DNA of 64,000 nucleotides from an uncultured Phycisphaerales bacterium (GCA_963755915.1 CAVWLP010000002.1:3712001-3776000); one strand, 5' to 3'. Counted from the stretch's first letter, positions 4,402 to 34,735 are shown. Notes: generated from the sequence alone by a model not told the origin. Numbers and translations: made by a program.

Positions 4402-6313
4402 CTATTTCGCGCGCCGCCGATTAACGCGCCGCGACAGCGCTCCCGCGCTCGCCACCGCCAAGAGCCCAATCGACATCGGTTCCGGCACCGCCCCAATCGC
4501 CGGCAGCGGCAACCCGTTCGCCACTGCAAACGCATCCAGCGCCGCCAGGTCCGCCGGCGTCACCGCCGAAAGATTATCCCCCTGCCCAAAATTCGCCGCC
4601 AGCGCCGAAAATCCGATCCGTTCACGGAGTTCGAAAACAGGAAATTCCCCTGGTCCCAGTTCGTAACCCCCAGCCCGAAATTCGCCGCCAGGATGCTGAA
4701 GTCGCTCCCGTTCACCGTCCCGTCCAGGTTCGCATCCCCCAGCAGCGTATATTTCACCTCAATTAATCCCGACGAAAGCCCGGCCACGATATGGTTCGCC
4801 CCATCCGCCCAACCCACGCCATAATGCAGCCCATTATGCAGCGTTTGCGCGGCCGATGAAATGATCCCGCTTCCGTTCCACGTGCCGTTGTTGTAGCCGC
4901 TCTTCAGCTCCGCGTAGACGGTGCTCATCGGATCGCCGCCGTTGGAATAATTCACCAGCAGCTCGTTCTTGGTGATGTCGACGGTTCCGCCGACCGAGAG
5001 GTTGTCGACCTCAATAACATTGCCGGAGCCTTGGATGGTCGCCGTCCCGCCCGCCGCGACCGAAAGCGTGTTGGCCGTTGAGGAGTTCCCGAATGCGATA
5101 GAGGCGTCGCTGTCGACCGTGATAATCGACTGATAGATCACCGACCCGCCGCCGCTCTGGGTAATTTTATCCCCGCTGTCAATGGTCAGGGGATTAGCGA
5201 TAATCAGCGAAGCGCCGCTGGCGACGTTGAAAACCGTATTGCTGGCAATGGTCGTGGGGATGTTGATCTCCTGCGTGCCGTTCTGCACGATCACCTCGGC
5301 ATCGCCGCTGGACGCCTGGAGTGTCAGTGAACCGGTTCCCGTGATTTCGTATTCATTGGCGTTATTGAAATTGATGGTCCCAACCGTGATCGCCGAATCG
5401 GAATAAACGGTGGTATTGGAAGTGGCCGCGCTGTAGAAGTCGGCTTCCGCGCCGCGCCGTTGGGCACCACGCCGGTCCAGTTGTTCACATTGTTCCAGCT
5501 TCCCGAGCTCGTAGAGTTCCATTGCTGAGGGGCGGTGGTGCTGGTGATGGCGAGGTTGTTCAACTCAATATCGCTGCCCCCCTCGCCGTTATCGTTGTAA
5601 ACGGCGAACTGTGAGGGCCCGCCGGTGCCCATCGAAATCTGCCCGGTAAATGTCTGCGACGCCCCGGTAACGCTGCCGTTGACGGCCGACGTGACGGTAA
5701 ACGTGTAATCGCCCGAGGAATCGTTCAGCTCAAAGGCGAACGTATCGCCGCTCAGATAATTGTACGGGACCGTTGTCTCCAGCGTATCCGACTGCGTGGC
5801 ATCGGTCAGAAAATATCCCGAAGCGCCGCCGGCCGTGTGGAAGTCGAAAAGCGTGTTGCCCGAAGAATCCTCCAGGGCCCATCCCAGTGCCGAGCCACCG
5901 CCTTGCGTTTGATTGGCGTAATGCAAAACGTCGGAGAATTTGAAGACCTGGTCGGGCGATAGCGCGCCGCCGGTGAACGGGCGGACGGCCGTCGTCACGT
6001 CCACGCCATAGTCGCCGCCGCCGTTGCCGTCGTTGGTGTCGTTCCATACATCGAAGTCGGGCTCAGTGACGACGCCAGTGTTGTCGTAGGTGCTGCCGTT
6101 GATGTAATCGCCGCCGGTGCCGGTGATGTTCACAGTCCAGGGCCCGAACCCTGTGCCCCCGTTTTCGCCGGCGAAAGCGTCGTACAACGTGTAAGCCGAA
6201 TTGGAAGCGTTGTCGGAAGCCGTATCAGCCGCACGAGCGGCGCGGATTCCGAAAGATGCCACTGTCAGCGCCGCAGCGCCGACGACGATAGACTGCCTCG
6301 TTTTCGATTGCAT
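4402..6313 (-). CDS. Secreted PEP-CTERM protein: uncharacterised N-domain, beta-strand repeats and dockerin-like tail (2 probable sequencing frameshifts, ~5455 and ~4607)
   Basis: GAGGAGG RBS, then ATG 6313 with signal peptide MQSKTRQSIVVGAAALTVASFGIRAARA. Joining frames gives ...GDANLDGTVNGSDFSILAANFG...AVPEPMSIGLLAVASAGALSRRVNRRRAK, TAG at 4402. Confidence 0.88.
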
Positions 6314-6368: not shown

Positions 6369-6434
6369 AATTTATCAATTCGACGCCAGCGCAATCTATG
6401 TCTTTTCGCGCCAATCTCGCTCCGTTTTGCGGCG
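6369..6434 (-). promoter_or_regulatory. XylR/AraC-type direct-repeat site A plus -10 (TAAATT at 6374)
   Basis: Minus strand CGCCGCAAAA-CGGAGCGAGAT-TGGCGCGAAA, matching four other sites in module 1. Confidence 0.75.
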
Positions 6435-6622
6435 GGCATCCCCGATGTGAAGGGCGGCAATGTTTATCGTATAAACCAGTAGAATCTGGAGAATCTGCAA
6501 GGATCGTGTCACCTGTACGCCAGCCCCCAATCGTCTCGATTGCGACAAACAGATCGCGCAAACAAAAACGTGCCGAGTCAGGCTCGGCACGTGCGGAGGG
6601 TATTACGTCGCGCGAACTCTAA

Positions 6623-7480
6623 TCATCTTTCGCTGCGACGGCGTCTGATCATCAGCATTGCCATCCCTGTGCCCACCGCGGCCAGCGAAACCGGCTCCGG
6701 CACATTGGTGATTGCCAGGTCGTCAAACTGCACGTCGCTCCCCTCACCGCCGTTGTTGTTGTAAATCGCCACCTGCGAAATTCCCCCCGTAAGCATCGAG
6801 ATCGTCCCGGTATACGCCTGCGATCCGCCGGCAACACTTCCGCCCGACGCAGTGAAGCTGTACGCGGCCGTCGCCGGTCCCACGCTATTCAGCGTAAAGC
6901 TGAAGGTGTCGATGGCGTGATAGTTATACCCCACGCCCGACACCGTCCCGGTTTGCGTTGCATCGCTCAGCAGATATCCCGGTCCGCCGCCTTGCACGTG
7001 GAAATCGAACAGTGCATTCCCGCTCGAATCCTCCAGGCTGAAACCGAGGTTGCTTGGACCGCCGTTGCTCGGATTGCTCCCGTTATTAAGCTGCTCGACA
7101 AACGAGAAATCCTGATTCGCGGCCAGCGCGCCGGTGAAAGGCCGTATCGCCGTAGTCGCATCTGTGACCGAGCCTGGGGTTGGCGAGTTCTGGGTTCCGT
7201 TGCAGTAAATGTCGAATCCCTGACCCGCGCCCGGAGTTGTCAAATCCACGTTATTCCACATGAAACTTCCGTACTCGTTCGCGTTGGACGTTGACTCCAG
7301 GACGTTCCAGGCTCCGAATCCAGTGCCGCCGTTCAGGCCATTAAAATTGTTGTAGCCTGTGTAAGGGGGATTATTCGATACCATGTCCGATGCGACCAGC
7401 GACGCACGCGCGACAGTGCCGACACCGCCCAAAACTGCCGCACCCAGACCGACCCACAATAATTTCCCGTTGTTCCGCAT
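6623..7480 (-). CDS. Small PEP-CTERM protein (285 aa), paralog of the N-domain of 4402-6313
   Basis: GGAGG RBS, signal peptide, C-terminal VPEP + hydrophobic helix + RRRR. Confidence 0.92.
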   Translation of the reverse strand: MRNNGKLLWVGLGAAVLGGVGTVARASLVASDMVSNNPPYTGYNNFNGLNGGTGFGAWNVLESTSNANEYGSFMWNNVDLTTPGAGQGFDIYCNGTQNSPTPGSVTDATTAIRPFTGALAANQDFSFVEQLNNGSNPSNGGPSNLGFSLEDSSGNALFDFHVQGGGPGYLLSDATQTGTVSGVGYNYHAIDTFSFTLNSVGPATAAYSFTASGGSVAGGSQAYTGTISMLTGGISQVAIYNNNGGEGSDVQFDDLAITNVPEPVSLAAVGTGMAMLMIRRRRSER

Positions 7481-7561
7481 TTTTTCCTCCAGCGCTTTAC
7501 GCGCAAGCCAGGTTTCTCACCCAAATTTCTCACTCGCCGATATGAACTAACGCGGAATGCG

Positions 7562-7626
7562 AAGTTACCTCACAACCGCGAACCGACAAGCAGCATTTCA
7601 CGTCAATCTCCCTCCGATTTGCGACA
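7562..7626 (-). promoter_or_regulatory. Direct-repeat site B plus -10 (TAACTT at 7567)
   Basis: Minus strand TGTCGCAAAT-CGGAGGGAGAT-TGACGTGAAA. Confidence 0.78.
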
Positions 7627-7739
7627 GAATGAATTGGGCACGAAACCCCCCGTCGCGTCCCGATATTCCGCATGATCCTGCGGAATTCCCCGCCAGACGG
7701 ATTAACCCCTAAAACCGGCCGTTTCTGCTCATTTCGATT

Positions 7740-7804
7740 TGCCGCGAAACGGAGAACGATTGGCGTCAATTGAAATAGCAGGCACCTTTTCAGCGGGTTA
7801 GCAT
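7740..7804 (+). promoter_or_regulatory. Direct-repeat site C plus -10 (TAGCAT at 7799)
   Basis: TGCCGCGAAA-CGGAGAACGAT-TGGCGTCAAT upstream of the prepilin-like gene. Confidence 0.78.
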
Positions 7805-7846
7805 TCCCCTCGTCAGGACACCTCAGGCACAGGAAGCGAGCAGGAC

Positions 7847-8686
7847 ATGACGACGACCGCGAAGCAAAGTTCCCGGCTCAAATCCGGCTTTACCCTCGTC
7901 GAATTGCTCGTCGTCATCGGCATCATTGCCATCCTGATCGGCATCCTCCTGCCGGCGCTTCAAAAGGCCCGTCAGCAGGGCCAACTCGTCGCCTGCCAGT
8001 CAAACATCCGTGAAATCCTTCAGGCCATGCAGAATTATTTGAGCGATAACAACTCCACGTTTCCGAATGGACGGAATTTCTCGTGGGAAATGGAGAAAGA
8101 ATCAAACGGATCGCCCATGTATCCAAACCTGGATCCATTGACATACACGTCGGGAGGCGCACTTCCAACCAACGATTACATCCAGGATTTTCTATCGCCC
8201 TACCTGCACTACACCGAAGACGGCAATAACCCAAGCACGCTTCCCAGCACCGAGAGCTATGCGGGCCCTGTGAATCTCGTGTGGCATTGTCCGGCGCTGC
8301 CGCCCGGTCAATTTGCCCAGCCATGGATGGACACCCCGACGGCAACGGCGTATCGCTATAATCTGGCTTATGCTTGTGGCTACAAGGCACGCCGTGTCAC
8401 ATCCTCCACAATTGCGATGCTATTTTACGATGAGGTGTGGGTCGATAAAAACTGGCCTCCAGGATCGTATCCCCATTTTCCCCGCAGCGCTAACTCGGCC
8501 ACCGTCAACGTTGGCTATGTCGATGGTCACGTCGAGCCCCACACCTATGCCCAGTTTGTGGCCGGTCTTTACCCAGTGACAGTAACGATAAAACTTCCCA
8601 GCGGCGTGAACTATGCCTATGCGACAGACACCGCGCCACAAGAACAATACGCGACCTTTTACAAACAAGGCTACGGCAACCCATAA
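7847..8686 (+). CDS. Prepilin-type N-methylation / H-X9-DG (DUF1559-like) protein 1
   Basis: Class III signal G^[33 protein letters not shown]-terminal PH...NVGYVDGHVE. Confidence 0.93.
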   Translation: MTTTAKQSSRLKSGFTLVELLVVIGIIAILIGILLPALQKARQQGQLVACQSNIREILQAMQNYLSDNNSTFPNGRNFSWEMEKESNGSPMYPNLDPLTYTSGGALPTNDYIQDFLSPYLHYTEDGNNPSTLPSTESYAGPVNLVWHCPALPPGQFAQPWMDTPTATAYRYNLAYACGYKARRVTSSTIAMLFYDEVWVDKNWPPGSYPHFPRSANSATVNVGYVDGHVEPHTYAQFVAGLYPVTVTIKLPSGVNYAYATDTAPQEQYATFYKQGYGNP

Positions 8687-8705
8687 CCTCACCTGAAAAA
8701 CCTCT

Positions 8706-11603
8706 ATGAAGCGCAAATTAGTTCGGAGGCGGCGAGCGCTGATCGAGCAATTGGAAGTCCGCCAATTGCTTTCCGGAATCATTGCCGACTCAAATTTCGC
8801 CACCCCCTCAATCTCTCACAACAGCTATTCCTACGACCCCACCGGCTCCGTCTGGACATTCGTCTCCACCGCCGGAGTCGTTTATCCTCCAAGCTCGCTC
8901 GGCGCTCCCTCCGCCCCCGCCGGCAGCGGCTCAAACCAAATCGCCTTTCTCCAAACCAATCGCAGCGCCAGCCAATATAACGGCTCCCAGGACGGCACCA
9001 TCTCCCAATCGATCACCCTCCCCTCCACCGGCTATTTCACCTTCAGCGTCTACGCCGCAGCGGATTCCAGCGATGTCGGCGGATCCGTCGCCGCCGAAGA
9101 ATCCTTCATGGTCGAGATCGACGGCACCCCCGTCCTCACCGGCCTGCATCCAACCAGCAGCTCCTTCGCCAGCGTCGGCGGAACCTTCTACGCCACCGCC
9201 GGAACCCACACGTTTTCCCTCGTCTCCACCGGTCCCAACGACCCAACAACGACCTTCATCGACGACCCCCAATTGGTCGCCGCCACCGTCGGCGCCGCGA
9301 CTCAGCTCGTTTTCTCAACGGTCTCTGAATCCCTGGCAACCGGCGTGAAATCCAGCCTCATGACCCTGACCTTAGAAAGCGCCGCCGGCCTCCCGGTAAC
9401 CGCAGGCGCCGGCGGCGTGACCGTCAATCTCAGTTCCACCTCAAGCTCGGGAATCTTCTTCAACAGCGGCAATGCCGTCGCATCTACTGTGACGATTGCC
9501 GCCGGCGCCAGCACCGCCAGCTTCTACTACCAAGACACCACCGCCGGCTCCCCCACGCTCACCGCCTCCTCTCCCAGCTTAACCAGCGCTACCCAGCAGG
9601 AGTCCGTCCAGGCAGTAATCTCCAGCTCATTCCTCCACACCTCCGGCACAAACATCGTCAACGCCGCCGGCCAAACCATCGAACTTCGCGGCGTCAATCT
9701 CGGAAGCTGGCTCATCATGGAAGGCTGGATGTCCCCTCTCGACAGCTCCGGACTCCCGGACGAATACGGCGTCATCCAAACCCTCGACAACCGCTTCGGC
9801 GTCGCCACCGAACAAAGCCTCCTCACCACCTACCAGCAAAACTGGATCACCACTCAGGACCTGGAAAACATCAAGAACGAAGGCTTCAACGTCATCCGCG
9901 TCCCCGTCTGGTGGGCCGACTTCGAAACCCTCCAGGGCCAGTGGCGTACCGACGCCTTCAACGAACTCGATTGGCTCGTCAACACCGCCGGCTCACTCGG
10001 AATCTACACCATCATCGACATGCACGGCGTCGTAGGCGGCGAAAGCACCTCCGACGACACTGGCCAGGAAAATCTCGACAACTACTGGACCAGCCCCTAC
10101 GACCAGCAACAGACCGACATCCTCTGGGAAAACATCGCCCAGCACTACAAGAACAACCCCTATGTCGCCGGCTACGACCTCATGAACGAGCCCGACAACG
10201 CCCCCAGCGACTCGGCCGTCATCTCCGCCTACGACCAGCTCTACAGCGCCGTCCGCTCCGTCGACACCAACCACATCGCGATTATCGAGGGAACATTCGA
10301 CCAGTGGAACTGGAGCATGCTCCCCAGTCCCTCTTCCCAAGGCTGGACCGACGTCGTTTACGAGATGCACGAATACCAATGGAACGACACGACCAATCCA
10401 TCAGGCGTAGAAGCCGGCACCAACAACCAGGTCAGCGATTTCCAGAACCACTCCTACTACGACGTTCCCGACTACATCGGCGAATTCAACGATTTCGGCA
10501 CCGGCTCCAGCACCTGGCAATACACCTTCCAGCAGTACGATAACAACAACATTAGTTGGAGCTTCTGGTCCTACAAAGCCACCGATGGCACCGCCTCCAG
10601 CATGGATAGCTGGGGCCTGTACGATCCCATCAACAGTCTCCCCGCCCCCAATATTCAAACCGCCACGTTGTCCACGATTTCACAGGATTGGACGGGTGTC
10701 ACGACGACCGGCTATTTCGCCATCAACACGCTGATACAGCCGGCCCTTCAGGCGGCGGGCGTTGTCGGCAATATCGTCGCCTGGACCGACAAAGACGGCA
10801 ACGACAACTGGTCCGATCCAAATAACTGGAGCACCGGCGCCATTCCCAATTCCTCCAGCGATGTGATCATCTACTCCGGCGAGGTCGTCGCCTCCAGCGC
10901 AATCAACGTCGCGACCCTCACGATCTACGGTGGCGAGTTGCAGTTCGCCACAAACAGTGGATATTCCGCCGTCACCTCCCTGAACATCATGCCCAGCGGC
11001 GTCTTGGATCTCACCAACAACCGCCTCTATATCGACTTCGGCACGGGCAACACCGACCCGGTCTCCATGATCTATACCTGGCTTCAAAGCGGCTACAACG
11101 GCGGAGCCTGGAACGGCCCGGGAATCGATTCCTCCAGCGCCGCCGCCAACAACCTTTACGCCTTGGGATACGCCGACGGCTACGACATCCTCACCCCGGG
11201 CCTCAGCTTCGGCCAAATCGAAATCGCTTACACCCTCTATGGCGACGCGAACCTCGACGGCACCGTCAACGGCACCGATTTCTCGATTTTGGCCGCCCAC
11301 TTCGGCCTGGGCGCAACCGCCTGGGACGCGGGAGACTTCACCTACGGCGGCGTCGTCAACGGCACCGATTTCAGCCTCCTCGCCGAAAACTTCGGCCAGG
11401 GCGCCACCGGCGCCGCAAGCGGGTCAGAGCCCAGCATCGCCTTCGCCGCCGCCGCCCTCACCACCGACGATCCCACCACGCTTCCCGCGTTGACCCCTTC
11501 GAAAAAGACAACGCAGGGAGTGATGGCTCGCTTGGTGAGCGCGCCGCCGGTCAAAGCGAAGCAAACCAAGCCTTCCACTAGCTCCACCCATCACGGATTC
11601 TGA
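8706..11603 (+). CDS. Extracellular GH5 glycoside hydrolase with planctomycete LExRxLLS N-terminal motif, Ig-like domains and dockerin-like tail (no PEP-CTERM)
   Basis: RRALIEQLEVRQLLS; GH5 motifs GVNLGSWLIMEGWM, IDMHG, YDLMNEP, YIGEFN; GDANLDGTVNGTDFSILAAHFG duplicated EF-hand-like loops. Confidence 0.9.
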   Translation: MKRKLVRRRRALIEQLEVRQLLSGIIADSNFATPSISHNSYSYDPTGSVWTFVSTAGVVYPPSSLGAPSAPAGSGSNQIAFLQTNRSASQYNGSQDGTISQSITLPSTGYFTFSVYAAADSSDVGGSVAAEESFMVEIDGTPVLTGLHPTSSSFASVGGTFYATAGTHTFSLVSTGPNDPTTTFIDDPQLVAATVGAATQLVFSTVSESLATGVKSSLMTLTLESAAGLPVTAGAGGVTVNLSSTSSSGIFFNSGNAVASTVTIAAGASTASFYYQDTTAGSPTLTASSPSLTSATQQESVQAVISSSFLHTSGTNIVNAAGQTIELRGVNLGSWLIMEGWMSPLDSSGLPDEYGVIQTLDNRFGVATEQSLLTTYQQNWITTQDLENIKNEGFNVIRVPVWWADFETLQGQWRTDAFNELDWLVNTAGSLGIYTIIDMHGVVGGESTSDDTGQENLDNYWTSPYDQQQTDILWENIAQHYKNNPYVAGYDLMNEPDNAPSDSAVISAYDQLYSAVRSVDTNHIAIIEGTFDQWNWSMLPSPSSQGWTDVVYEMHEYQWNDTTNPSGVEAGTNNQVSDFQNHSYYDVPDYIGEFNDFGTGSSTWQYTFQQYDNNNISWSFWSYKATDGTASSMDSWGLYDPINSLPAPNIQTATLSTISQDWTGVTTTGYFAINTLIQPALQAAGVVGNIVAWTDKDGNDNWSDPNNWSTGAIPNSSSDVIIYSGEVVASSAINVATLTIYGGELQFATNSGYSAVTSLNIMPSGVLDLTNNRLYIDFGTGNTDPVSMIYTWLQSGYNGGAWNGPGIDSSSAAANNLYALGYADGYDILTPGLSFGQIEIAYTLYGDANLDGTVNGTDFSILAAHFGLGATAWDAGDFTYGGVVNGTDFSLLAENFGQGATGAASGSEPSIAFAAAALTTDDPTTLPALTPSKKTTQGVMARLVSAPPVKAKQTKPSTSSTHHGF

Positions 11604-11640
11604 CCAACTCAGAACCAACGGTATCCCAACTCCTCTCCCC

Positions 11641-11693
11641 GTGTAGCCGCCCCACTTTGACTTCGGTGAGCTGTGTCGAACCGTGGGCGCGTC
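11641..11693 (+). repeat. REP-like palindrome with a 25-bp internal insertion
   Basis: GTGTAGCCGCCCCACTT[tgacttcggtgagctgtgtcgaacc]GTGGGCGCGTC versus the uninterrupted copy at 12527. Confidence 0.55.
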
Positions 11694-11756
11694 CCGATCG
11701 CTTCCCTCAAACCCGCAAACCCTCCTTTGGAACGCTCTATGCATACAATCATCACC

Positions 11757-12502
11757 ATGCCCACCCGATTCCCCGGCTTCCCGCGACAAATGCCCACTTT
11801 TTTTGCGCTCTCGAGAAGAATAATCAGCGTGAATGGTTCATCCCCCGGAAAGAAATCTTCGAGAACCACGTCCGCACGCCCATGATTGACCTGGTCACGT
11901 TCCTCAATGAGAAGTTGCGTAAAGGCTTCGGAATTGACCATGCATCCGAACGTCCCGAGCGCCTCATCTATCGCATTTATCGCGATACGCGATTTTCCAG
12001 CGACAAGACCCCATACAAGACCCACATCGCCGCCACTTTCGCCCACCGCCGCCTCCCGCGCCACAGCGGCGCTGGATATTACTTCGAGATTTCCCATCGC
12101 TATGTCGGAATCGCCGGCGGCGTTTACATGCCGGGACCGGAAGAACTGACCGCCATCCGCGACGCAATTGCCGCCGACCCAAACCGATTCCTCGCGATCG
12201 CGAAAAATCCAAAATTGAAAAAACTTTTCGGCCCCCTTCAGGGCGATCGTCTCACCCGCCTCCCCAAAGCTTGGCACTCCCATGCCAACTCCGCGGCCGC
12301 CGAATACCTCAAATTCAAGCAGTACTACTGGTGGGCAGAGCTGCCGCCATCGCTAGCTCTGTCCCCGCAACTTCCCCGCACGCTCCTGCACCATTTCCAG
12401 GCCATGTCGGATGGGATCGACTGGTTCAACAGCACCATTCTGACCGATCGACATCGCCAGGAAGAAGAATCCCGTCCGCTCCGCCCAGCACCGATGTGGT
12501 GA
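11757..12502 (+). CDS. DUF2461 (TIGR02453) family protein; probable 1-nt deletion at the T-run ~11800
   Basis: MPTRFPGFPRQMPTFF joins ALEKNNQREWF; signature IYRIYRDTRFSSDKTPYKTH. Confidence 0.88.
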
Positions 12503-12526
12503 TCGCCGACAACGCCACCTATCCCC

Positions 12527-12557
12527 GTTTAGCGGCCCCACTTGTGGGGCGCGTCTT
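12527..12557 (+). repeat. REP-like palindrome
   Basis: GTTTAGCGGCCCCACTTGTGGGGCGCGTC; relatives at 11641 (+) and ~39995-40025 (-). Confidence 0.55.
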
Positions 12558-12683
12558 TCGATCTCCACAAATCCTGGTTTCCCACTTTGCGCCCCCAACC
12601 ATTCACAAATCACCCCCCAGCCGCCGCGCCAGCTTTCCCCTAAGCCCCCTTTGCAGATTCTTTCGAACTTCAACAATCTCAAC

Positions 12684-12901
12684 CGAAAAATCCCCGGATT
12701 TCCCAAAAATACGTCCTAAACGTACACCTTTTGGACCTGTATATAGAGTCGTGATGTTTTTCGGTCCTCTACTCCTCGGAGCATACATGTCCACCCTTCC
12801 CAAATCTGAGATCTCAAATTTCAAATCTGAAATCCCGATCTCAAACCCACCCCCTCGCTCCGTTTTCCCTCGAAAGTGAGATATTTTGGGATAATGTGGG
12901 A
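12684..12901 (+). repeat. Dispersed non-coding element copy 1 (65-bp core plus downstream decamer repeats)
   Basis: 12684-12748 aligns ungapped with the reverse complement of 37425-37489 (48/65 identical by hand count). Decamers TGAGATATTT TGGGATAATG TGGGA follow at 12877-12901. Confidence 0.7.
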
Positions 12902-12913
12902 GCAACCCGCTCC

Positions 12914-13061
12914 TTTGCAGACTGTAAAGTTTTGTAACCCATGCCCCGAATACAAACATTTTCGCGGAGGCACGGTATAGTTCCCGCCGCAATCAATTGC
13001 GCAACCGGGCGCGAACCAAATGCGGAAACGACGGCTCGATAAATCAGCCCCCCAACCCCGC
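12914..13061 (+). pseudogene. Degenerate duplicate of the promoter and first 14 codons of the XylR-type gene at 15777
   Basis: 13020-13061 vs 15777-15818: 39/42 identical; upstream 12914-12975 resembles 15679-15750. Confidence 0.8.
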
Positions 13062-13187
13062 ACCATACTACCCGGCCGTGAGCGCCGACCAATCCTGGGT
13101 AAGACCACAACCGACCGGCGGCGAGAGTGAGACAGTTTGAGACGATTTGGGACGATTTGTAGGGGTTTGACTAGTGAATGCTAATCC

Positions 13188-13253
13188 GTAGGGTGGGTGT
13201 ACTCGCCCACCATCTCGGTGCATGTTGAAGGCGAACTGCCGCTGGGCGATTGC
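13188..13253 (+). repeat. GTAG-type REP-like element, left copy flanking the HEPN-like gene
   Basis: GTAGGGTGGGTGTACTCGCCCACC...GGCGAACTGC; similar to 14404-14472. Confidence 0.6.
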
Positions 13254-13405
13254 AAAATCGATGGGCAAGCAATTCGGGCTGAACTGATCCGCGATATGTA
13301 TGACCTTGAGATTGAGCCAGAGTTCGCGGGGAATCAAATACAAAATAAGTCACCAAGCGTAGAAAGTTTGGACAAAGGCCGTCCCGTATTGTGTAATCGG
13401 GTGAA

Positions 13406-14365
13406 ATGGTCCCACGACGCAACGAACAGTTTTTCGATCAAAGACGAGTCGATGAATTGATTAAATTTGGGCTCACGAGCATTTCCATTGAAAAGCTTCG
13501 GTACCGCGTAATTCCCAGGCTCGGATTAGTTTACGACTCCTATGCGGCTGACGTAGCCAGGGTGATAGACCTCGCGAAGTTTTCTACCTACCTGACGCTT
13601 CAAAGTTGCACGTTCGCTGGCGAACTTACAAAGGTTATTTACGAAGAGACTGGATGCTTCGCCCCCCCGCGCTCCGTCCGGAAAAAGTACAATGACAATA
13701 TTCGCCTTAGCATGATGAAGCTTGAAGATGAGCGACCGCCGCGTTCGGACGCGAAACTCTTCAAGGACGTTTGTAATCTTACTAGGATGGTGATTGAGCG
13801 GGCCGACGTGAAACTATTGGATGGATACGACGCGATCATGCCCTCGTTAATCGTATTGGCATGGACGGCTTTTGAGGCTTTGAGCGAAGATCTATTAAGC
13901 AAGGCGGTAAAATTCTTTCCGAGGTCTCTTTCCCAATCGAATTGGTGCAAAACTCGCAGAAAACTCGCCCCGTGGGAGCAGATGACGATATCGGGTTCTA
14001 TTAGAACCCACAGCGATGTGCCTAAGAATCCGGGGTTACATCATTTGAGTTACAGAACCATTGAAGCGATTCGGAAATCCTACTGGTTGGTCTTCCGTTC
14101 CGATTGCGCCAAGATACGGCGAGCACTTTCACACCGTTCTCTAGACAATCTCCATGCGGCGCGGAACGTGATCGTCCATAAGAGTGGGAAAGTGGACCAA
14201 ATTTTTCTAAATCGGACCGCAGGCGTTCCGATGTTCGCAAAGGCGATTGCGGGAAATTACTTTCACATGGATTTTGCCATGGTAAATACACTGGTGCTTC
14301 CTGTTCTGAATCGCGGAATTCAGTTAATAGCGGTGGTGAACGATTGGGTTCGGGCGCACGGATGA
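13406..14365 (+). CDS. Hypothetical protein with probable HEPN RNase domain
   Basis: 319-aa ORF with AT-richer codons. Helix AWTAFEALSEDL and R-x4-H motif ARNVIVHKSGKVD. Confidence 0.62.
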   Translation: MVPRRNEQFFDQRRVDELIKFGLTSISIEKLRYRVIPRLGLVYDSYAADVARVIDLAKFSTYLTLQSCTFAGELTKVIYEETGCFAPPRSVRKKYNDNIRLSMMKLEDERPPRSDAKLFKDVCNLTRMVIERADVKLLDGYDAIMPSLIVLAWTAFEALSEDLLSKAVKFFPRSLSQSNWCKTRRKLAPWEQMTISGSIRTHSDVPKNPGLHHLSYRTIEAIRKSYWLVFRSDCAKIRRALSHRSLDNLHAARNVIVHKSGKVDQIFLNRTAGVPMFAKAIAGNYFHMDFAMVNTLVLPVLNRGIQLIAVVNDWVRAHG

Positions 14366-14403
14366 AAAAGCGGCATTAAGGCCTCACGCGATTGAATTAG
14401 CCA

Positions 14404-14520
14404 GTAAGGGTGGGCGTACCCGTTCACGCTCTCAGGGCACTTTGCGGGCGAACTGCGGTTCGACGAGGCTGCAGAGTAAGTGGTCGAGCAACCAGACGGC
14501 GACAGGTATGCCCAACCTAA
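14404..14520 (+). repeat. REPIN-like inverted pair, right copy flanking the HEPN-like gene
   Basis: GTAAGGGTGGGCGTACCCG ... GGTATGCCCAACCTAA imperfect inverted ends. Confidence 0.5.
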
Positions 14521-14627
14521 ACAATTTTTTTTCGCGATCGCACTTAGATATACTTGCTAGGCATGGGCACCGAGGGTAGCCGAAGGGTCTGGCTCGAGCT
14601 CGTGGTCAGAGGCGCGGAGGTCACGCC

Positions 14628-15406
14628 GTGCCGCGGCTCGCCATCGGCGAACTATTTAAGCTGGTCGAGGACTCGTCCTCAGAATATTTCGGATCGTTTA
14701 ACTACTTGCTGCAAATAGGGGCGTTGCAACGGCTCTCTCCACCCGAAGTTGATCAGCTTGGCCGAGGGGCTTCCGTTCCCGGCAACCTTTGCGCAATAGT
14801 GGACGGCCATAGTTGGAATTTTTTCAGAGTGGCCCGACCCGAGGACCTTTATGCATGCCTGGCAGCACAGCTCAATTCCTCCTCACAGCCCTTGCCGCAC
14901 GGATACGAGACAGATGCGATGTACGCCGCTAAGATCGTTGGCCTAAATCCAGCACAATTGGCAGAGGCCAAGCAATACGATGTCCCGGACACTGAAATGC
15001 AGGCAATGCGGAGGTTGCCCATACCCCTCCACTTTATACCTTCAATGTATTTCAAGGCGGAAAAGGCGGGGGACGCCTTACGTCTCCGGATGATCGCTGG
15101 ATACCTTACCCGCTGGCATGAGGAACAGAAGAGCCAACTATCAGCACTAAGCGGCGCGCTCGATTTCGTGGAGAGTTGTTGCGACCCTGCCGACGGGTGC
15201 AAAGCTGGAGGCAAACAGACAGCCAATACCTGAAGATGTCCGACACGAGGTCTGGCGCCGTGATCAAGCACGCTGCGTTCGATGCGGCTCACAAAACCGT
15301 CTGGAATTCGACCATATTATTCCTTGGTCGAAGGGCGGTGCAAATACGGCGCAATATCCAACTACTTTGCGAAACATGTAACAGGGCTAAGAGCGACACC
15401 ATATAA
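14628..15406 (+). CDS. Unknown N-domain fused to a C-terminal HNH endonuclease (two probable 2-nt deletions, ~15175 and ~15350)
   Basis: The alternative frame from 15217 reads RQPIPEDVRHEVWRRDQARCVRCGSQNRLEFDHIIPWSKGGANTA and joins NIQLLCETCNRAKSDTI*, a zinc-binding HNH. Confidence 0.8.
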
Positions 15407-15776
15407 CGCGACACGGGAGCATTAGGCATAATGTCAGAGACGACAGGGCGAACTACCTTTTTGAGCCTCCGCCTTTCGGCGCACAGATCGGTCGGGCAAC
15501 GACTGAGTAACCAACGAAGCCAAGTCGGCTGATTCGCGGTAAGCTGCCAACTCTGCCATCGCGACTCTACCGCGAAGTCGGAATCATGTCGCTCGTGCTG
15601 ATAAATCTACGTATGATTTCCAAAATGCGAAATTCACCGCAAAATTGCTTGCCCAAACTACCTATATTTCCCAGTTTGTTGCGGACTGTTACCTTTTGTA
15701 CCGCATGTACCCCATACAAAAATATTTAGCCGGGGAACGGTATATTTCCGTCCGTTCTAGTGGACGGCTAATAGAG

Positions 15777-16938
15777 ATGCGGAAACGACGCCTCGATAAA
15801 TCAGCAACCCAACCCCGCCGCATCGGCCTCGCGCTCGATGCCGTCGCTGCCTATGGCCGCGGAATTATTCGCGGCGTCATGACCTACACCCACACCCGCT
15901 CCCGCTGGACCGTCAGCGCCGAACCCCAGTGGTCCTTCAGCGAGCCGATCGACATCGAACGCTGGGACGTTGACGGCCTCATCGTCCAAACCTTCAGCCG
16001 CGAATTCGAAAAACGCGTCCTCAAGCTCGGCCTGCCAGCCACCAACGTCTCCAACTTCTGCGAGGGCGAAATGAACCTCCCCTCCATCCTCCCCGACGAC
16101 GGCGCCGTAGCAGTAATGGCCGCCGACTACTTGATTTCCCTCGGCTTCCGCCAACTCGGCTACTGCTGGGCCGGCGAGATGCAATACGGCCGCCTCCGCC
16201 TCGAGGCCTTCCGCCGCCGCGCCGCCGAAAGCGGCATCACCATCCACGAATGCAACGCCGCCAACAGTCCCCTCGACAAGTGGATTCTAAAACTCCCCAA
16301 GCCCATCGGCGTCCTGGGATGCAACGACGACTGGGCCCACCGAATCCTCAACGCCGCCCGCCAGCAGGGCGTAAGAGTCCCCGACGAGATGGCCGTCCTG
16401 GGCGTAGACAACGACGAACTTTTCAACGCCCTGGTAACCCCATCCCTTTCCAGTCTCGAGCTCCCCACCGAGCAAATCGGCTTCGAAGCCGCCGCACAGC
16501 TCGACCGCCTCATGAACGGCGAAAAGCTCGAGCACCTGACCCTGCTCCCCCCAGTCCGCGTAGTTCCGCGCGCCTCAACGGACGTCTTGTCGATCGAAGA
16601 CGAAGACATCGTCCTCGCCGTTCGTTTCATTCGCGAACATGCCGCCGAGCCACTCCAGGTCGACGACGTCCTCGACCACGTCCCCCTCAGCCGCCGATCG
16701 CTCGAGCGCCGGTTCCGGCAACTGGTCCGCCACTCCATCACGGATGAGATCCGCCGCGCCCACATCAATCGCGCGTAAAGAACTCCTCGCCAACACCGAT
16801 CTGGCGATGTCCCAGGTCGCCGCCGGCTCCGGTTTCACGACCGCCACCCGCCTCGGAATCGTATTCCACAAAGAGGTCGGCGAAGCCCCTTCAGAGTTCC
16901 GCAGACGGGCCCGGGTTATGGGACGTCCTAAAGTTTAA
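15777..16938 (+). CDS. XylR-family transcriptional regulator (LacI-type sugar-binding + AraC HTH); 1-nt insertion ~16775
   Basis: VPDEMAVLGVDNDE, LSRRSLERRF; continues KELLANTDLAMSQVAAGSGF...PSEFRRR to TAA 16938. Confidence 0.92.
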
Positions 16939-16999
16939 ACTTCCACCATCCTGCCGCCCTGGACGCGCATATCGCCTTACAGGCAAGAAACTTGCAGTC

Positions 17000-17065
17000 T
17001 GTCGCAAATAAGAGAGTTATTGGCGGAATTATGAATTGCGACCTCCGCCATCCGGCACATAGGGT
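17000..17065 (+). promoter_or_regulatory. Direct-repeat site D plus -10 (TAGGGT at 17060)
   Basis: TGTCGCAAAT-AAGAGAGTTAT-TGGCGGAATT. Confidence 0.78.
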
Positions 17066-17110
17066 ATCGCCTGTCAAAGGCACCTTTTTCTGGTGGTCAC
17101 TGGAGACGCT

Positions 17111-18544
17111 ATGTCCTTTCCGTCCGGATTCGCCTGGGGCGCGGCCACTGCCGCGTATCAAGTCGAAGGCGCTGCGCATCAGGACGGCCGGGGCGAAAGC
17201 GTCTGGGACATGTTCTGCCGAAAGGACGGCGCCGTTTACAGCGGCCATACGGGCGACATCGCCTGCGATCACTATCACCGCTGGCAGGAAGACATCGCCC
17301 TGATGAAGGAGATGGGCCTTAAGGCCTATCGCCTCAGCATCTCCTGGCCGCGCGTTCTTCCCGATGGCATCGGCAAACCCAACGAGCAGGGGCTGGAATT
17401 TTACGACCGCCTGATCGATGGCCTCCTGGCGGCGGGCATCACGCCCTACGTCACGCTCTTCCATTGGGATTATCCCTACGCCCTCTATTGCCGTGGCGGT
17501 TGGCTGAACCGCGAATCGGTGGAGTGGTTTGCCGGCTACGCAAAGCTCATCGCCCAGCGACTCGGAGATCGCGTCGCCCACTGGATGACGATGAACGAGC
17601 CGCAGTGTTTTCTGGGCTTGGGCCATCGCGATGGCGTGCAGGCGCCGGGATTAAAGCTGGCCTGGTGCGACGTTCTGCGGGCGCTGCATCACAGCCTGAT
17701 GGCGCACGGGCGCGCCGTTCAAACGCTTCGCGAGTATTGCTCCACGCCTCCGACGATCGGCTGGGCGCCGCTTGCCGAGGTGAAATATCCCGCGACCTCC
17801 GCAGCCGCTGACATCGAAGCGGCCCGCACGCGCACGATGGCGGCCGATGCCCGCGACCTTTGGAACAACACGATCTTCGGCGACCCGATTTGCCTCGGCC
17901 ACTATCCGCAGGACGCCTTGCGCACCTGGGGCCGCGATTTCCCGAAGTTCACGCAGGCGGAGATGGACCTGATCCACGAGAAAATTGATTTCTATGGACT
18001 GAATACCTACCGCGGACATCCAGTGACAGTTGGAGAGGACGGCCAGATCAAGCCCGCGCCGCGCGAACCGGGCACGCCGATGAATTCCTATTCGTGGACC
18101 ATCGATCCAGCGGTCCTCTACTGGGGCCCCAAGTTCATTTACGAGCGCTACCAGTTGCCGATCCACGTCACCGAGAACGGATTTGCCGGGCTCGATTGGG
18201 TACACATGGATGGAGCCGTTCACGACCCGCAGCGAATCGACTTTACCCGCCGATATCTTTTGGAGCTGCGCCGCGCGATCCAGGGGGGGGTCGATGTGCG
18301 CGGATATTTCTACTGGTCGCTGATGGATAATTTTGAGTGGGCGGATGGCTATCGCCAGCGCTTTGGGCTCATTCACGTCGACTATAAAACCCTTCGACGG
18401 ACGCCCAAAGATTCGGCCCGGTGGTACGCCGGCGTCATTCGCACCAACGGAGAGAATCTGTCAGAGGCGCCGCCGGTTCCACGCGTGAAGATCTACACAG
18501 AAGCGCTCAAGGAAGCCGAACCGCCAGCGCGGGTTGTTCGCTGA
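17111..18544 (+). CDS. GH1 beta-glucosidase (no signal peptide, cytoplasmic)
   Basis: GGAG RBS + ATG 17111; FAWGAATAAYQVEG, TMNEP, HVTENG, WSLMDNFEW. Confidence 0.96.
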   Translation: MSFPSGFAWGAATAAYQVEGAAHQDGRGESVWDMFCRKDGAVYSGHTGDIACDHYHRWQEDIALMKEMGLKAYRLSISWPRVLPDGIGKPNEQGLEFYDRLIDGLLAAGITPYVTLFHWDYPYALYCRGGWLNRESVEWFAGYAKLIAQRLGDRVAHWMTMNEPQCFLGLGHRDGVQAPGLKLAWCDVLRALHHSLMAHGRAVQTLREYCSTPPTIGWAPLAEVKYPATSAAADIEAARTRTMAADARDLWNNTIFGDPICLGHYPQDALRTWGRDFPKFTQAEMDLIHEKIDFYGLNTYRGHPVTVGEDGQIKPAPREPGTPMNSYSWTIDPAVLYWGPKFIYERYQLPIHVTENGFAGLDWVHMDGAVHDPQRIDFTRRYLLELRRAIQGGVDVRGYFYWSLMDNFEWADGYRQRFGLIHVDYKTLRRTPKDSARWYAGVIRTNGENLSEAPPVPRVKIYTEALKEAEPPARVVR

Positions 18545-18560
18545 AGAGCCGCGAACCAAT

Positions 18561-21048
18561 TCACTTCAAATCAGAAGCTTTTACCAGCGTCGCATCATCG
18601 AGCTTGATGGCCCCGCCGCGCGGACCATCGGCAGCGGGCGTGATCACGACCAGCACCCGCATTCGCGGGCCATCGGCAGTGCCGCTGAGAACAAGATGCG
18701 TCCACCGATGTCCGCTGGCCAGTCTGCCCACGTCGAAGTTCACCGTGTTGAGCGCGATTTGCCCGTGATCGGTGAGTGTTTCCAGTCGCAGCTCGACGTT
18801 TGCCGCCTGGGTCTGGCCCGCGAGCGGTATGTCACGCTGGGCGTAGATCGAAAACGTGTATCGCCCGCCCGGCTCCGTGCTGACATCCTGCCACAATCCA
18901 GAGGTATCCGCCGTTTCGACCTGCCAATGGTGATAGCCGATTTCGGAGGCGCCCGAATGCGTCGGCGTCCAGCCGGTTTCGCGGTTGATCCACGGTCCCC
19001 AGCGGTTCCAGCCGGCGGCGACATCGACAGAATTTCCCTGATCTTCAAACGAGCCGTTCGTCAGAAGCGACGGCCCCGGCGGGGGGGTGTTGGGCGAATC
19101 GCCGGGCGCGGGAAGCACGTCATCTGCCGAGGCGCCTAGACGCGCCTTCACGGTTGTGAGGCCCGCGTCGAGATGGGCACACGCAACCAGTCCGACACGA
19201 AAATCCCCTTCGCGTGGGACGGGTCTGGAGGCGACGGTTTGCCAATCGCCTCTGTCTGTTCGATACATTCCCGTCGCCAGCCCCTGGGCGATTTGCAGCC
19301 GAAGCTCAACCGGCAATGTCGCTCCCGCCGCGACCTTCGTTTCGACCGCCCGTCCCCCGGCGCGGCGGCGCGTCACCAGGGCGATCGTTCCATCGGGGAA
19401 CACATTCACCATCGCCATCGCGCTGTGCGGGTCGTTCGCTTCGCCCCAGCGCGCCATCAGGCCCGCCTTGGCATATTCCGCGCTATCAACAAAGGAAAGG
19501 ATCGCAGCTTTCGTATCACACGACTCGCCATGAACCGGCTGCGACACAAACCTGCAACTGTCGCTGCTGCCGAAAATGTCGATTCCGCCCCCCATGAGCA
19601 GAAAGTCTCCATCCGCGAGCGCTGCGGTGTACCCAGGCGAAGCGCCGCCGAGATCGATCGAGCTGAAACCCTCAGGCGCAGACGCGGGCGGGTCGCTGGG
19701 TGGCGCGGTCGGAAGGCGCGGATAGTTGGCCAGATAAAGCGGACTCGGATTCGGAGTCGTCAGCGCCTCCCGCAGTCGCTCATTGATCGCCAGCGGCATC
19801 GTCCCGAGGTTTGTAAAGAAACGCTTGAATTCGTCGTAGGAGCTGCTTTGTAGATTCAATAGCGGCAGGGGGGTTGCATTGGTGACCATGTACCAGGCAT
19901 CCGGCTGTACGCCCCCGCGAGTGCCAATATTCTTGTACGCCCACATCGTGCTGGGCCAGCCGTATTCCGCGAATCGATCGTAAAACGCCCGAAGCACCCG
20001 GCAGGGATCCTCAGTGTCGAGAACGATGTTGAATTCCCCAACGTAGTAGGGGGAAGCGATTTGGCTCACCGTATCCATACTTGGCAGGGATTTCCTGATT
20101 CAGCACGCGGGACTGCGTTTCCAGGGCCGATTTGCTGCCGAACAATCCGGGATAGTAATGCTCGGTGAATCCAACATTGGTCATGCCCTGGTCGTGCGGG
20201 TTGCCGTAAAAGCTGATCCCGCCATTGAGCGCGCCGGGGAAGAAGACGACGTGCCGGTCGCCGGTGGATCGAATCGCTTCATAAATCTGCGGCAACAGCC
20301 GGGCCAGCACCGGCCGGCAATCTTCGGTGTGATTTCCATACGGTTCGTTGATGAGGTCATAAGCGGCAACCGAGCTGCGATCTTTGAAATGCTCCGCAAG
20401 GGCCTTCCAGACGTCGACGGTGCGCTGCTGATCTTCTTCGCTGCTCCAGAGATGATCCTGCCCCACCTCGCCGGTGTGGTCTTCCAGGCTCTGCCCTCCC
20501 GGCACGCCGTGCAAATCGAGAATCACATACAGGCCCGCATCCCCGGCCATGTCCACTGCGCGATCGAGCCAGCGAAACGCGTCGTCTTTGACCGCAAACG
20601 GCGGTCGGTCGTCCTGAATCAGCCTGTAGTCAAAAGGCAACCGCACCACGTTGAATCCGAACGTCTTGATGATCTGCAAATCACGCGGCGTGATCCAGTT
20701 GGTTCGATACAGATCGATCAGTTCCTGCGATCCGGCATCCCCAAATCGTTGCCGCAAGGTGCGATATACGGTGGCTCCATCTCGAAACGCGTGATCCGGC
20801 CCATCGCCGAGCGTTCCCCCAAACATCCACGATTCGAGCATGAGATAATTGCCGAGGTTGCAACCTTTGAGGACCACTTCCGAACCGGAGGAGTCCACCA
20901 ATCGTGGACCTGACGCGCTGATAAAAGGCAGGGGATTGTTCTCGGCAATAGCGACCCGGGGAGAGGCCAAATGGAAGAGGATGGTGGTGCAAATCGCGGA
21001 GGCTGTAACAATGAATCGTCTGAATCTGGTTTGGGGAGTGCTTTCCAT
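18561..21048 (-). CDS. Secreted GH5 hydrolase with C-terminal lectin/CBM-like domains; frameshift ~20075
   Basis: Signal peptide; GCNLGNYLMLESWM, LDLHG, YDLINEP. YVGEFN nucleophile lies in the downstream frame; LLTNGSFE CBM-like start. Confidence 0.88.
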
Positions 21049-21072
21049 TCGCAAGCGGCCTGCTTGAGGTGC

Positions 21073-21137
21073 AAATTAGCACGTTCATCTGCCCGGTGCG
21101 ATTCGGTATCCAGCCAAAATACCTCTGTTTTGCGTCA
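21073..21137 (-). promoter_or_regulatory. Direct-repeat site E plus extended -10 (TGCTAATTT)
   Basis: Minus strand TGACGCAAAA-CAGAGGTATTT-TGGCTGGATA. Confidence 0.72.
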
Positions 21138-21180
21138 AATTGCAGAGACCGCCCGATCTCCAGCTTCTCCGCGCAATGGG

Positions 21181-21254
21181 TGTAATTTACATACATTCGT
21201 ACATGAAAACAATGTAAATAAATGCTTGACATACCCCTGTCAAAGCAGTATTTT
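21181..21254 (+). promoter_or_regulatory. TGTAAnTTACA operator and sigma70 promoter for the giant PEP-CTERM gene
   Basis: Perfect TGTAA-T-TTACA at 21181-21191; TTGACA (21226)-17 bp-TATTTT (21249). Confidence 0.75.
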
Positions 21255-21589
21255 CTAGAGCGGCGAAGACCCCAACTCGCTTCGCTGCGTCCTGAATTGT
21301 TTGCTTCAGTTTAAGGGCCAGATGACGGAGGGTTTACAGCGAGCGCGGCTGCTAATTGCGGTCCGTGATCATTGCGGTGGGACCGGTATTGCGTTTCCAC
21401 GTTTGCGCCTGCCGCGACTCGCCCAGCATACCCATTTCAACAGCCATATGCCCAATGCCATGAAACGACTCATGTCGCGCCCGCCGAATTTGTTTCACGC
21501 GGTGGTTTCAATCCATCCGCCAGTCGGCGTCGGTCGGGAATAAAGGTTGGATCGAATCAAGTAAGTTTCGGCTACAGGAGAGAAATGCC

Positions 21590-33685: not shown

Positions 33686-34735
33686 GTGCGCTGCAAACGA
33701 AAAGGTTTCACATTAGTCGAGCTGCTCGTCGTCATCGGAATCATCGCGATCCTCATCGCGATCCTGCTGCCGGCACTGAACAAAGCGAGGGCGCAGGCGA
33801 CTTACGTGCAGTGTCAATCCAACATGCGGCAAATTGGGATGGATTTCGTCCAGTACGCCACGTCGTTTAACAATTACATTGTGCCCGCCGTCGAATGGGG
33901 TACGGCTTCGGGAACCCCGTTTAACAATAGTAACACTACTTCCGCCAACGGTTACTGGGACGAAGAATGGCCTATGATTCTTACGTCACTCGGTTATGTG
34001 CCTCTGCAGGGAATGGTCAATCCCAATAATCCGGGCACTATTGCGCCGAAACCTGATCCTCACACGGCGGCAACAAGTGTCCTCGTTTGCCCGGCCGTGC
34101 GTACTTCACTCATCTATGATGATGTTTCAGGTCAACAGACGGGCGGTACGGTTCTGGGCGTAGACGGATTTGATCGGCGAATGTCCTATTATTTGATGAA
34201 CTACAACGGAAGCAATGGGCAGATTGTGGACAGTGGGTATGGCATTAATGGCTTCGTGTACACGGGCACAGTCTTTAACCAAGCTGGCGGAAGCCACCCC
34301 CTTACCGGATCCGGAGAGCCCAATGGAAATGAGGCTTATTGCCCTTGCGGTGTATTATCAACCAACGAGACCGCCAACCCAACCACGATGCACAAGACGA
34401 CAGAATTCCACCAGTCGGCGCTTACCGTGCTCCTTTACGACGGAACAGAATGGAATGGCATGATTGCTTCCGAGTGGCGAATCAGCGGCGCGCGGCACGG
34501 GCAGTTTATGTCCAATCCTCCGGGCAAATTGATGACCACGACCGGCGGTGGGGATTACGGAACCGGAACTCTTACCCTTAATCTCAGCGGAACCACTAAC
34601 GTGCTCTTCCTCGACGGCCACGTAGAGGGCATTCCGAGGGTGGACCTTCCGGCCACTGACGCCCAGTGGACTGGAAATCGCTCGCAAATGGTTCCGAATA
34701 CGGAGTACATCTGGAACCTTCAGCAGCAGCAGTAG
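33686..34735 (+). CDS. Prepilin-type / H-X9-DG (DUF1559-like) protein 2
   Basis: GGAGG RBS, GTG start; KG^[39 protein letters not shown]...[10 protein letters not shown]. Confidence 0.93.

Follow-up and report, generated by a model that had tools for sequence, protein, structure and literature searches.

What do five copies of one 31-bp motif do in the genome of an uncultured soil planctomycete, and which protein reads them? The copies are found in a 64,000-nt stretch of DNA from an uncultured Phycisphaerales bacterium (GCA_963755915.1, CAVWLP010000002.1:3712001-3776000), referred to here as the window, where they lie upstream of genes for glycoside hydrolases of families 1 and 5 (GH1, GH5), a pilin-like protein and PEP-CTERM proteins, in a locus that also encodes a XylR-type regulator (Table 1). 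An earlier note on this DNA had taken them for activator sites of the adjacent XylR-type protein, and the comparative evidence described below (conservation, variants beside paralogs, and geometry) backs that proposal. It is likely that the five sites are operators of the regulator encoded in the locus, through which the genes would be activated together. The source genome (G000, in which the window is C2:3712001-3776000) comprises 6.63 Mb in three contigs with 59% G+C, and its close relatives are soil and peat metagenome-assembled genomes (MAGs) labelled Tepidisphaeraceae or Phycisphaerales (Planctomycetota).

Five sites with a fixed promoter geometry

The five 31-mers, written 5' to 3' on the gene strand, are CGCCGCAAAACGGAGCGAGATTGGCGCGAAA, TGTCGCAAATCGGAGGGAGATTGACGTGAAA, TGCCGCGAAACGGAGAACGATTGGCGTCAAT, TGTCGCAAATAAGAGAGTTATTGGCGGAATT and TGACGCAAAACAGAGGTATTTTGGCTGGATA, and were found by direct reading of the sequence exactly where, and on the strands on which, the earlier note had placed them. 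All are intergenic and each points at the next gene, which bears out the claim that every site is upstream of and co-oriented with a gene, and sites 2 and 3 are back to back with 113 bp between them. The two boxes of each site are 21 bp apart, as had been claimed, with T1-G2-n-C4-G5 repeated as T22-G23-G24-C25-G26 and TGnCG..AA present in all five sites at positions 1-9 and again at 22-30. The AraC I1-I2 period is 21 bp. An alignment of 29 sites from six genomes gave the consensus TGnCGCAAAacnGAGagagnTTGgCgnnAat.

A genome-wide motif check, suggested in the earlier note, left the five sites standing alone. A position weight matrix (PWM) built from them scored its own sites at 40.6-46.0 bits, and the next match in the 6.63 Mb reached 24.1 bits. 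When each site was left out of the matrix in turn it was recovered as the top non-training match (25.2-35.9 bits) in all five cases among 13,253,328 positions, and a 36-nt PWM from the 29 sites separated the five (39.2-45.3 bits) from the rest of the genome (24.0 bits or less). A degenerate pattern gave 5 matches in the window against 0.77 expected and none of 100 shuffles reached 5, a comparison that is circular as the pattern was derived from the sites. A chance origin of the five sites is excluded. There was no Rfam match at E <= 0.1 in window positions 1-30000 and no inverted repeat of at least 10 nt in 21130-21600.

Two near-identical sites, TCGCAAACGGAGATACrATTGTCG, were found at G000 C2:944774(-) and C2:1827285(+) with equal box spacing and the GGAG shifted by one base; neither has a XylR-type gene near it or a TAnnnT at +29. 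A conserved 25-mer, GTCGCGAAAnCGGAGCAnTTTTTCC, was present on several contigs of G002, G003, G008 and G010, two of which are without this regulon, and may be the operator of another paralog.

Downstream of the sites, TAnnnT hexamers were read directly at 6374, 7567, 7799, 17060 and 21078, 38-39 bp from the start of box 2, in agreement with the earlier note. Of the 34 sites across the genus genomes, 31 have the hexamer start at +28 to +30 past the 31-mer; those without it are an extra site, 's1b', in G009 and G006, plus site 5 in G011. A block at +5 to +12 (TTGCGA, TTGAAA, TTGTCG or ATAGCA) is also conserved and stands 16-18 nt ahead of the hexamer, placed as a weak -35 would be. A scan for consensus sigma-70 promoters found none at any of the five sites, while the same scan returned a 10/12 promoter at 21226-21254, so that canonical hexamers do exist in this genome. 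The weakness of the core promoters at the five sites fits a dependence on an activator. A search of RNA runs found none containing the locus. The consensus-like promoter, TTGACA-17-TATTTT, lies within an A+T-rich segment at 21186-21254(+), between site 5 and a PATR-repeat gene at 21590.

With the transcription start set 7 nt past the hexamer, the 31-mer spans -72/-71 to -42/-41 and a 15-bp second half-site ends at -36, so that half-site 2 would occupy about -50 to -36 by its fixed distance to the TAnnnT of the predicted start. The operator would then be composed of two 15-bp half-sites at positions 1-15 and 22-36, repeated directly with a period of 21 bp and each made up of a box A (TGnCGCAAA, common to many XylR-type paralogs) and a box B (CGGAG or CAGAG, specific to this paralog), and would cover about -72 to -36, abutting the weak -35. 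The orthologs of sites 4 and 5 show (C)GAG or GAA at 34-36 as a repeat of the box B GAG at 13-15. Once bound to its sugar, the regulator would bring in RNA polymerase in a class I/II-type activation of five transcription units, namely PEP-CTERM/dockerin, PEP-CTERM, pilin-like plus GH5-dockerin, GH1 beta-glucosidase and GH5-CBM.

Two conserved blocks in strict orientation to the downstream gene might describe the promoter of an alternative sigma factor, either of the extracytoplasmic function (ECF) type or sigma-54. The blocks are only 11-14 nt apart, too short for a -35/-10 pair of the sigma-70 family, however, and the site sequences have no GG-N10-GC, the conserved locus has no sigma or anti-sigma gene, and the separate conserved TAnnnT stands 28-30 nt beyond. 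The ECF and sigma-54 readings were rejected on spacing, and a promoter of this kind is very improbable.

Table 1. Sites, hexamers and genes of the locus (positions counted from the first letter of the window; ORF, open reading frame)
Feature	Position	Strand	Remarks
Site-1 target	4560..6313	-	Overlapping ORFs 5324-6313 and 4560-5522 (break between 5324 and 5522)
-10-like TAAATT	6369..6374	-	+30 after site 1; TAnnnT in 6/6 orthologous promoters
Putative operator site 1	6404..6434	-	Upstream of the 4560-6313(-) gene; kept in 5 other genomes
Terminator-like hairpin after the PEP-CTERM gene	6568..6592	-	Divides the site-2 from the site-1 transcription unit
Site-2 target, 285-aa PEP-CTERM protein with uncharacterised ~230-aa domain	6623..7480	-	TIGR02595 22.4 bits (cut-off 16)
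-10-like TAACTT	7562..7567	-	+29 after site 2; TAnnnT in 6/6 orthologous promoters
Putative operator site 2	7596..7626	-	Upstream of the PEP-CTERM gene; kept in 5 other genomes
Putative operator site 3	7740..7770	+	Upstream of the pilin-like/GH5 operon; kept in 5 other genomes
-10-like TAGCAT	7799..7804	+	+29 after site 3; TAnnnT in 6/6 orthologous promoters
Site-3 target 1, pilin-like, prepilin N-terminal methylation motif, DUF1559-like	7847..8686	+	N_methyl 28.7 bits (cut-off 21.2)
Site-3 target 2, 965-aa GH5 with dockerin	8706..11603	+	Begins 20 nt past the pilin-like gene
XylR-type regulator, sugar-binding periplasmic-binding-protein (PBP) domain and AraC double helix-turn-helix (HTH)	15777..16938	+	Split by an extra base at 16775/16776 in this assembly
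Putative operator site 4	17000..17030	+	62 nt past the regulator stop, upstream of GH1; kept in 6 other genomes
-10-like TAGGGT	17060..17065	+	+30 after site 4; TAnnnT in 7/7 orthologous promoters
Site-4 target, GH1 beta-glucosidase	17111..18544	+	Glyco_hydro_1 498.7 bits; TIGR03356 BGL 535.3 bits (cut-off 478.5)
Site-5 target, one GH5 gene with C-terminal CBM_4_9/ConA-like region	18561..21048	-	Split by an indel near 20069 in the assembly
-10-like TAATTT	21073..21078	-	+29 after site 5; TAnnnT in 6/7 orthologous promoters, G011 without
Putative operator site 5	21107..21137	-	Upstream of the GH5/CBM-like gene; kept in 6 other genomes

Conservation of the sites across the genus

Orthologs of the regulator with 85-98% identity were present in six of the 12 other genomes of the genus, and 12-18 kb around each was compared. 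The orthologous promoters carry sites in every one of these loci, five or six where the contig spans the locus, while in G002 two sites are on a short contig and three more on another. Mean pairwise identity was 0.88 in the 31-mer but fell to 0.38 over the 40 nt ahead of it and to 0.34 at +37 to +75, calculated from five or six orthologous promoters per site class with the near-identical G001 left out. Clusters of four to six exact-pattern matches were found beside the regulator ortholog in all seven genus genomes having it. The six genus genomes without it had no cluster and zero to three scattered matches on different contigs, and 40 other genera of the family, G014 included, had zero to four scattered exact-pattern matches each. 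The distribution shows that the locus comes and goes as a unit.

This conservation bears on whether the sites could be non-regulatory repeats such as remnants of mobile elements. The genome does contain dispersed repeats, including one whose 33-nt core is present in at least 42 copies, but the motif has five copies only, all in promoters, all oriented with a gene and all conserved amid diverging flanks in six other genomes. The repeat reading was rejected on conservation and placement and is scarcely credible.

In G009 and G006 site 1 stands back to back with a sixth one (L032:1623-1653(+) and L035:13109-13139(-)). This sixth site precedes a second pilin-like (N_methyl/DUF1559) gene that is absent from G000, and its hexamer is GATGAT-like rather than TAnnnT.

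Geometry and conservation also bear on the sign of regulation. The sites of E. coli XylR measure about 37 bp and consist of two direct repeats next to poor -35 and -10 elements, and the protein is described as binding only with xylose (PMC3561964). It is conceivable that the XylR-type protein of this locus binds the sites as a repressor or dual regulator, since some members of the AraC family repress or loop DNA, as apo AraC is reported to do (PMC3561964), and the back-to-back sites 2 and 3, 113 bp apart, could support such looping. Against this, the sites are wholly upstream of the predicted -35, 31 of 34 stand at a fixed distance from the -10, the promoters have weak cores, and E. coli XylR is described as an activator unable to bind DNA unless sugar is present (PMC3561964). 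The distance from site 2 to site 3 also differs among genomes (114, 131 and 142 bp between motif starts), with no conservation of helical phase, which speaks against looping. Repression or dual regulation is given a small chance.

The XylR-type regulator, its paralogs and a possible operator code

The regulator was identified from its domains. The ORF at 15777-16778 encodes the PBP domain and an HTH_18 domain follows in the +1 frame, to 16938. The window protein matched Peripla_BP_3 at 118.7 bits and the intact orthologs matched it at 116-127 bits, with HTH_18 (60 bits) on the same polypeptide in the orthologs; PBP1_XylR scored 24.9-25.2 bits, just below its cut-off of 27. The E. coli XylR chain 4FE7_A aligned with an intact ortholog end to end (E 1.1e-42, query 11-376 to chain 23-405). 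The protein shares its domain architecture, an AraC-family DNA-binding domain with a LacI/GalR-type ligand domain, with E. coli XylR (PDB 4FE7/4FE4).

The earlier note had spoken of a repaired 15777 protein; the frameshift is present in the assembly and absent from the short-read contigs and the six orthologs. The orthologs are intact over the break, reading ...INRAKELL/KDLL..., and contigs from two soil-metagenome runs (X1, 1208 nt; X2, 367 nt) are without the base at 16775 and otherwise identical to the window here, in the pieces listed. Indels of one or two bases set the short-read contigs apart from the assembly at 11684, 11797, 14611, 15196, 16775 and 20069 (six in 15.5 kb), and the completeness estimate of the three-contig genome is 81%, so that the indels are best read as assembly errors. 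The best-matching metagenome run may be the sample of origin, and the comparison is thus independent of the assembly method and not of the organism. We infer that the frameshift is an assembly error or a minor variant rather than the mark of a dead gene. Because of such indels ORF calls in this genome need care; two other XylR-type paralogs of G000 also matched in two pieces.

In the compact form of the locus (G009, G006, G008 and G011) about 90-290 nt separate the regulator from the GH5-dockerin gene ahead of it, while in G000 and G001 only, these two genes are set apart by an inserted segment of about 4 kb at 11609-15700 (a DUF2461 gene and unannotated ORFs). In G000 no site stands ahead of the regulator itself; in the compact loci it may be read through from site 3. 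A weak 19-bit site with TATTAT at +30 was observed ahead of the regulator in G008. About 75 nt ahead of the regulator ATG, again in G000 and G001 only, is an element of about 75 nt (15630-15710) with a core of 33-36 nt at 15669-15704 (..CCCAGyTTGTTGCGGACTGTTACCTTTTGTACC..). It has no Rfam match and is present in at least 42 copies with 90-100% identity on contigs C2 and C3. The sequence downstream differs with each copy, five copies run into one shared sequence, and many loose ends of metagenome contigs fall at its borders; it could be a promoter module or the end of a mobile element.

The strongest argument for which protein binds the sites came from the paralogs of the regulator, about 14 XylR-type genes being present in G000. 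The closest paralog (50% identity, C2:4259736-4260887) is accompanied by three sites that match this operator in box A, box spacing and box 2 and read TCTAG in place of CGGAG. They precede the gene of a 314-aa protein that belongs to the PEP-CTERM domain family of the site-2 target, a PATR-repeat gene together with an alginate-lyase-like gene, and a GH3 gene. Two sites accompany the next paralog (38%, C2:4328344-4329471), their centre being CGTTT/CATTA. They lie ahead of a DUF1559 pilin-like gene, beyond which comes a GH2-like gene, and ahead of a gene for a PATR/PEP-CTERM protein. A -10-like hexamer follows each of these five paralog sites at +27 to +30, as a strict TAnnnT in three.

The association extends beyond these two paralogs. 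Ten of the top 11 PWM matches in G000 were within 10 kb of a XylR-type gene, regions that make up about 4.5% of the genome, with C2:2496085 the exception. A generic 16-position template with at least 14 positions matching placed 12 of 27 matches in these regions, or 6 of 21 without this locus, against the same 4.5%. In other genomes the generic architecture (at least 13 of 16) was found in 12 of 23 4-kb loci of XylR-type genes ranging from family to class level, in eight of them right at a gene end, as compared with 1 of 23 for the reversed template and a mean of 0.6 for 20 shuffles. L023, from G014, was among the loci with no match. A second XylR-type paralog within the window, at 41695-42980(+), is flanked by a pilin-like ORF (33686-34735) and the very large ORFs 43173-45647, 45785-49168 and 49201-52545, with PEP-CTERM-like ends nearby. 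A search for an operator beside it gave no clear one, the best match being a weak 11 of 16.

Another DNA-binding protein encoded elsewhere might read the motif, the XylR-type gene being a mere neighbour, as co-occurrence within a locus cannot tell a regulator from its targets. We give this little credence. The motif is nowhere else in the genome, related variants accompany further XylR-type genes both here and in other genomes, and the conserved locus has no DNA-binding gene besides the XylR-type one, with no second regulator gene conserved there.

Several points weigh against this assignment or its details. The 7 of 13 genus genomes with a GH1 ortholog (E <= 1e-80) are exactly those with the regulator, so the phyletic pattern does not distinguish the regulator from its targets. 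No motif was found in the 7-kb locus of L042, a homolog with 63% identity (best PWM match 3.5 bits, best generic match 12 of 16 and inside a gene). The box B of the second half-site is weak in sites 1-3. Box 2 and its flank are partly palindromic (TTGGCGCGAAA-like) and several sites score on the opposite strand too, so the arrangement may be an inverted rather than a direct repeat. Finally, the regulator gene as assembled here is frameshifted.

The proposed operator resembles known ones in geometry rather than sequence. Direct repeats beside a weak -35, predicted here, and divergent promoter pairs are common to this locus and to E. coli XylR, a sugar-dependent activator, with operators of 31-36 bp here and about 37 bp in E. 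coli, while the sequence is unrelated to the E. coli consensus given in that source (gaAa-a-a-AAT, twice; PMC3561964). The regulon and the host also differ, being GH1/GH5, pilin-like and PEP-CTERM genes in an uncultured Tepidisphaeraceae (Phycisphaerae) MAG as opposed to xylAB/xylFGH in E. coli, and it is unlikely that the ligand would be proven to be xylose. The targets of XylS are two direct repeats of 15 bp, in each of which 6 bp separate box A from box B; monomers bind them stepwise and contact RNA polymerase, and in the XylS/AraC type one monomer with two HTHs occupies each half-site (PMC5481539). In common with XylS at Pm and AraC at I1-I2 are the two direct 15-bp half-sites, the distance of about 10 bp between boxes A and B, and a proximal half-site that here would abut the -35. 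The box sequences are different, the sensor here is of the PBP type rather than a cupin or the XylS N-terminal domain, and the box B of the second half-site is degenerate at three of the five promoters. The regulator is thus of a known family and the operator of a known geometry, and a full-text search of a literature library found no such regulon in print for Phycisphaerae or Tepidisphaera.

The recognition helix of HTH1 (sRRxLErRF) is nearly constant over eight homolog groups while that of HTH2 varies by group, which parallels the constant box A and variable box B. By analogy with XylS, HTH1 would read box A and HTH2 box B. A wider model is possible, though we offer it tentatively and would not be surprised to see it fail: Tepidisphaeraceae may organise glycan use in modules resembling polysaccharide utilisation loci, each with its own XylR-type activator, a substrate-specific DUF1559 'fishing rod', a PEP-CTERM-anchored capture layer with the new domain of about 230 residues, and carbohydrate-active enzymes, kept apart by an operator code in which a shared box A is read through HTH1 and a box B naming the paralog through HTH2.

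Genes under the sites and their possible place in glycan use

The site-1 target is a single ORF of 685-730 residues in orthologs, and its split in the window is probably due to an assembly indel. Its first 285 or so residues are 44-48% identical to the PEP-CTERM protein of site 2, of which it is a paralog, and its rear part has a dockerin-like region (Dockerin_1, 26.6 bits) followed by a PEP-CTERM end (17.5 bits, below the cut-off). The pilin-like protein also matched TIGR02532 (25.2 bits, cut-off 16.3), and its SBP_bac_10 (DUF1559) body scored 22.3 bits against a cut-off of 23.3. The GH5 read at 20011-21054 is not a gene of its own, as that ORF (20011-21048) and ORF 18561-20078 are one ORF of 847-875 residues in G009, G008 and G002, and the short-read contigs are without one base at 20069. 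Among solved structures, both GH5 domains come closest to a putative beta-xylosidase (9KU5) and exo-beta-1,3-glucanases, from which the substrate is probably a beta-linked glucan or xylan and can be named no more closely. The gluco-oligosaccharides put forward in the earlier note as inducer are a guess.

The operators that they have in common with the hydrolases place the PEP-CTERM and pilin-like genes in the regulon. That these genes belong with the GH1/GH5 system, as the earlier note had claimed, is supported by the shared operators and by a pairing that recurs at other XylR-type genes. PEP-CTERM proteins (162, defined by a regular expression) were found within 10 kb of 11 of the 14 XylR-type genes as compared with 4.6 +/- 1.7 at random, and none of 2000 simulations reached 11. 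Pilin-like ORFs (39, with GFTLxE) were within the same distance of 6 of the 14 (1.5 at random; 3 of 2000 simulations). The genome has three exosortase genes, as Exosortase_EpsH matches above the cut-off.

The domain of about 230 residues in the PEP-CTERM protein belongs to a family of 406 representatives at E <= 1e-3. It is also encoded at 5459-6313(-) and at G000:C2:4252400-4253344(-), with the motifs ASDxxSNxxY, NGGTGFGxW and RPFTGAL, and in some members forms the N-terminus of proteins of 1000-3400 residues. Pfam searches with 102 family members returned no family besides the PEP-CTERM sorting signal (64 of 102), and a profile of the domain matched nothing among PDB sequences below E 0.33. 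An AlphaFold2 model of the PEP-CTERM protein from a nine-sequence alignment had a mean predicted local distance difference test (pLDDT) score of 42.6, too poor for a fold search.

Pilin-like proteins have been proposed to capture polysaccharides (PMC12078418, section 5; PMC13174399). For planctomycetes, uptake by pilin-like 'fishing rods' is a hypothesis of a review (PMC12078418, section 5), and Akkermansia is described as needing the pilin-like protein MUL2A (PMC13174399). The locus resembles such pilin-dependent uptake in the Planctomycetes-Verrucomicrobia-Chlamydiae group in that a pilin-like gene heads a glycoside-hydrolase operon under a sugar-type regulator. The pilin-like protein here is DUF1559-like and probably no homolog of MUL2A, and the link to glycans consists of shared operators and gene proximity only. 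The predicted regulon thus fits the 'fishing-rod' idea without testing it.

These observations provide, for a soil planctomycete that is uncultured, a concrete regulon and operator that can be tested, in which one sugar-type switch would control a pilin-like gene and two PEP-CTERM proteins together with GH1 and GH5. The finding would be of greater interest if the recurrent module and the operator code hold up. It lends genomic support to the use of dedicated pilin-like proteins by planctomycetes in polysaccharide uptake, and the named promoters and regulator make the 'fishing-rod' idea open to test in a heterologous host.

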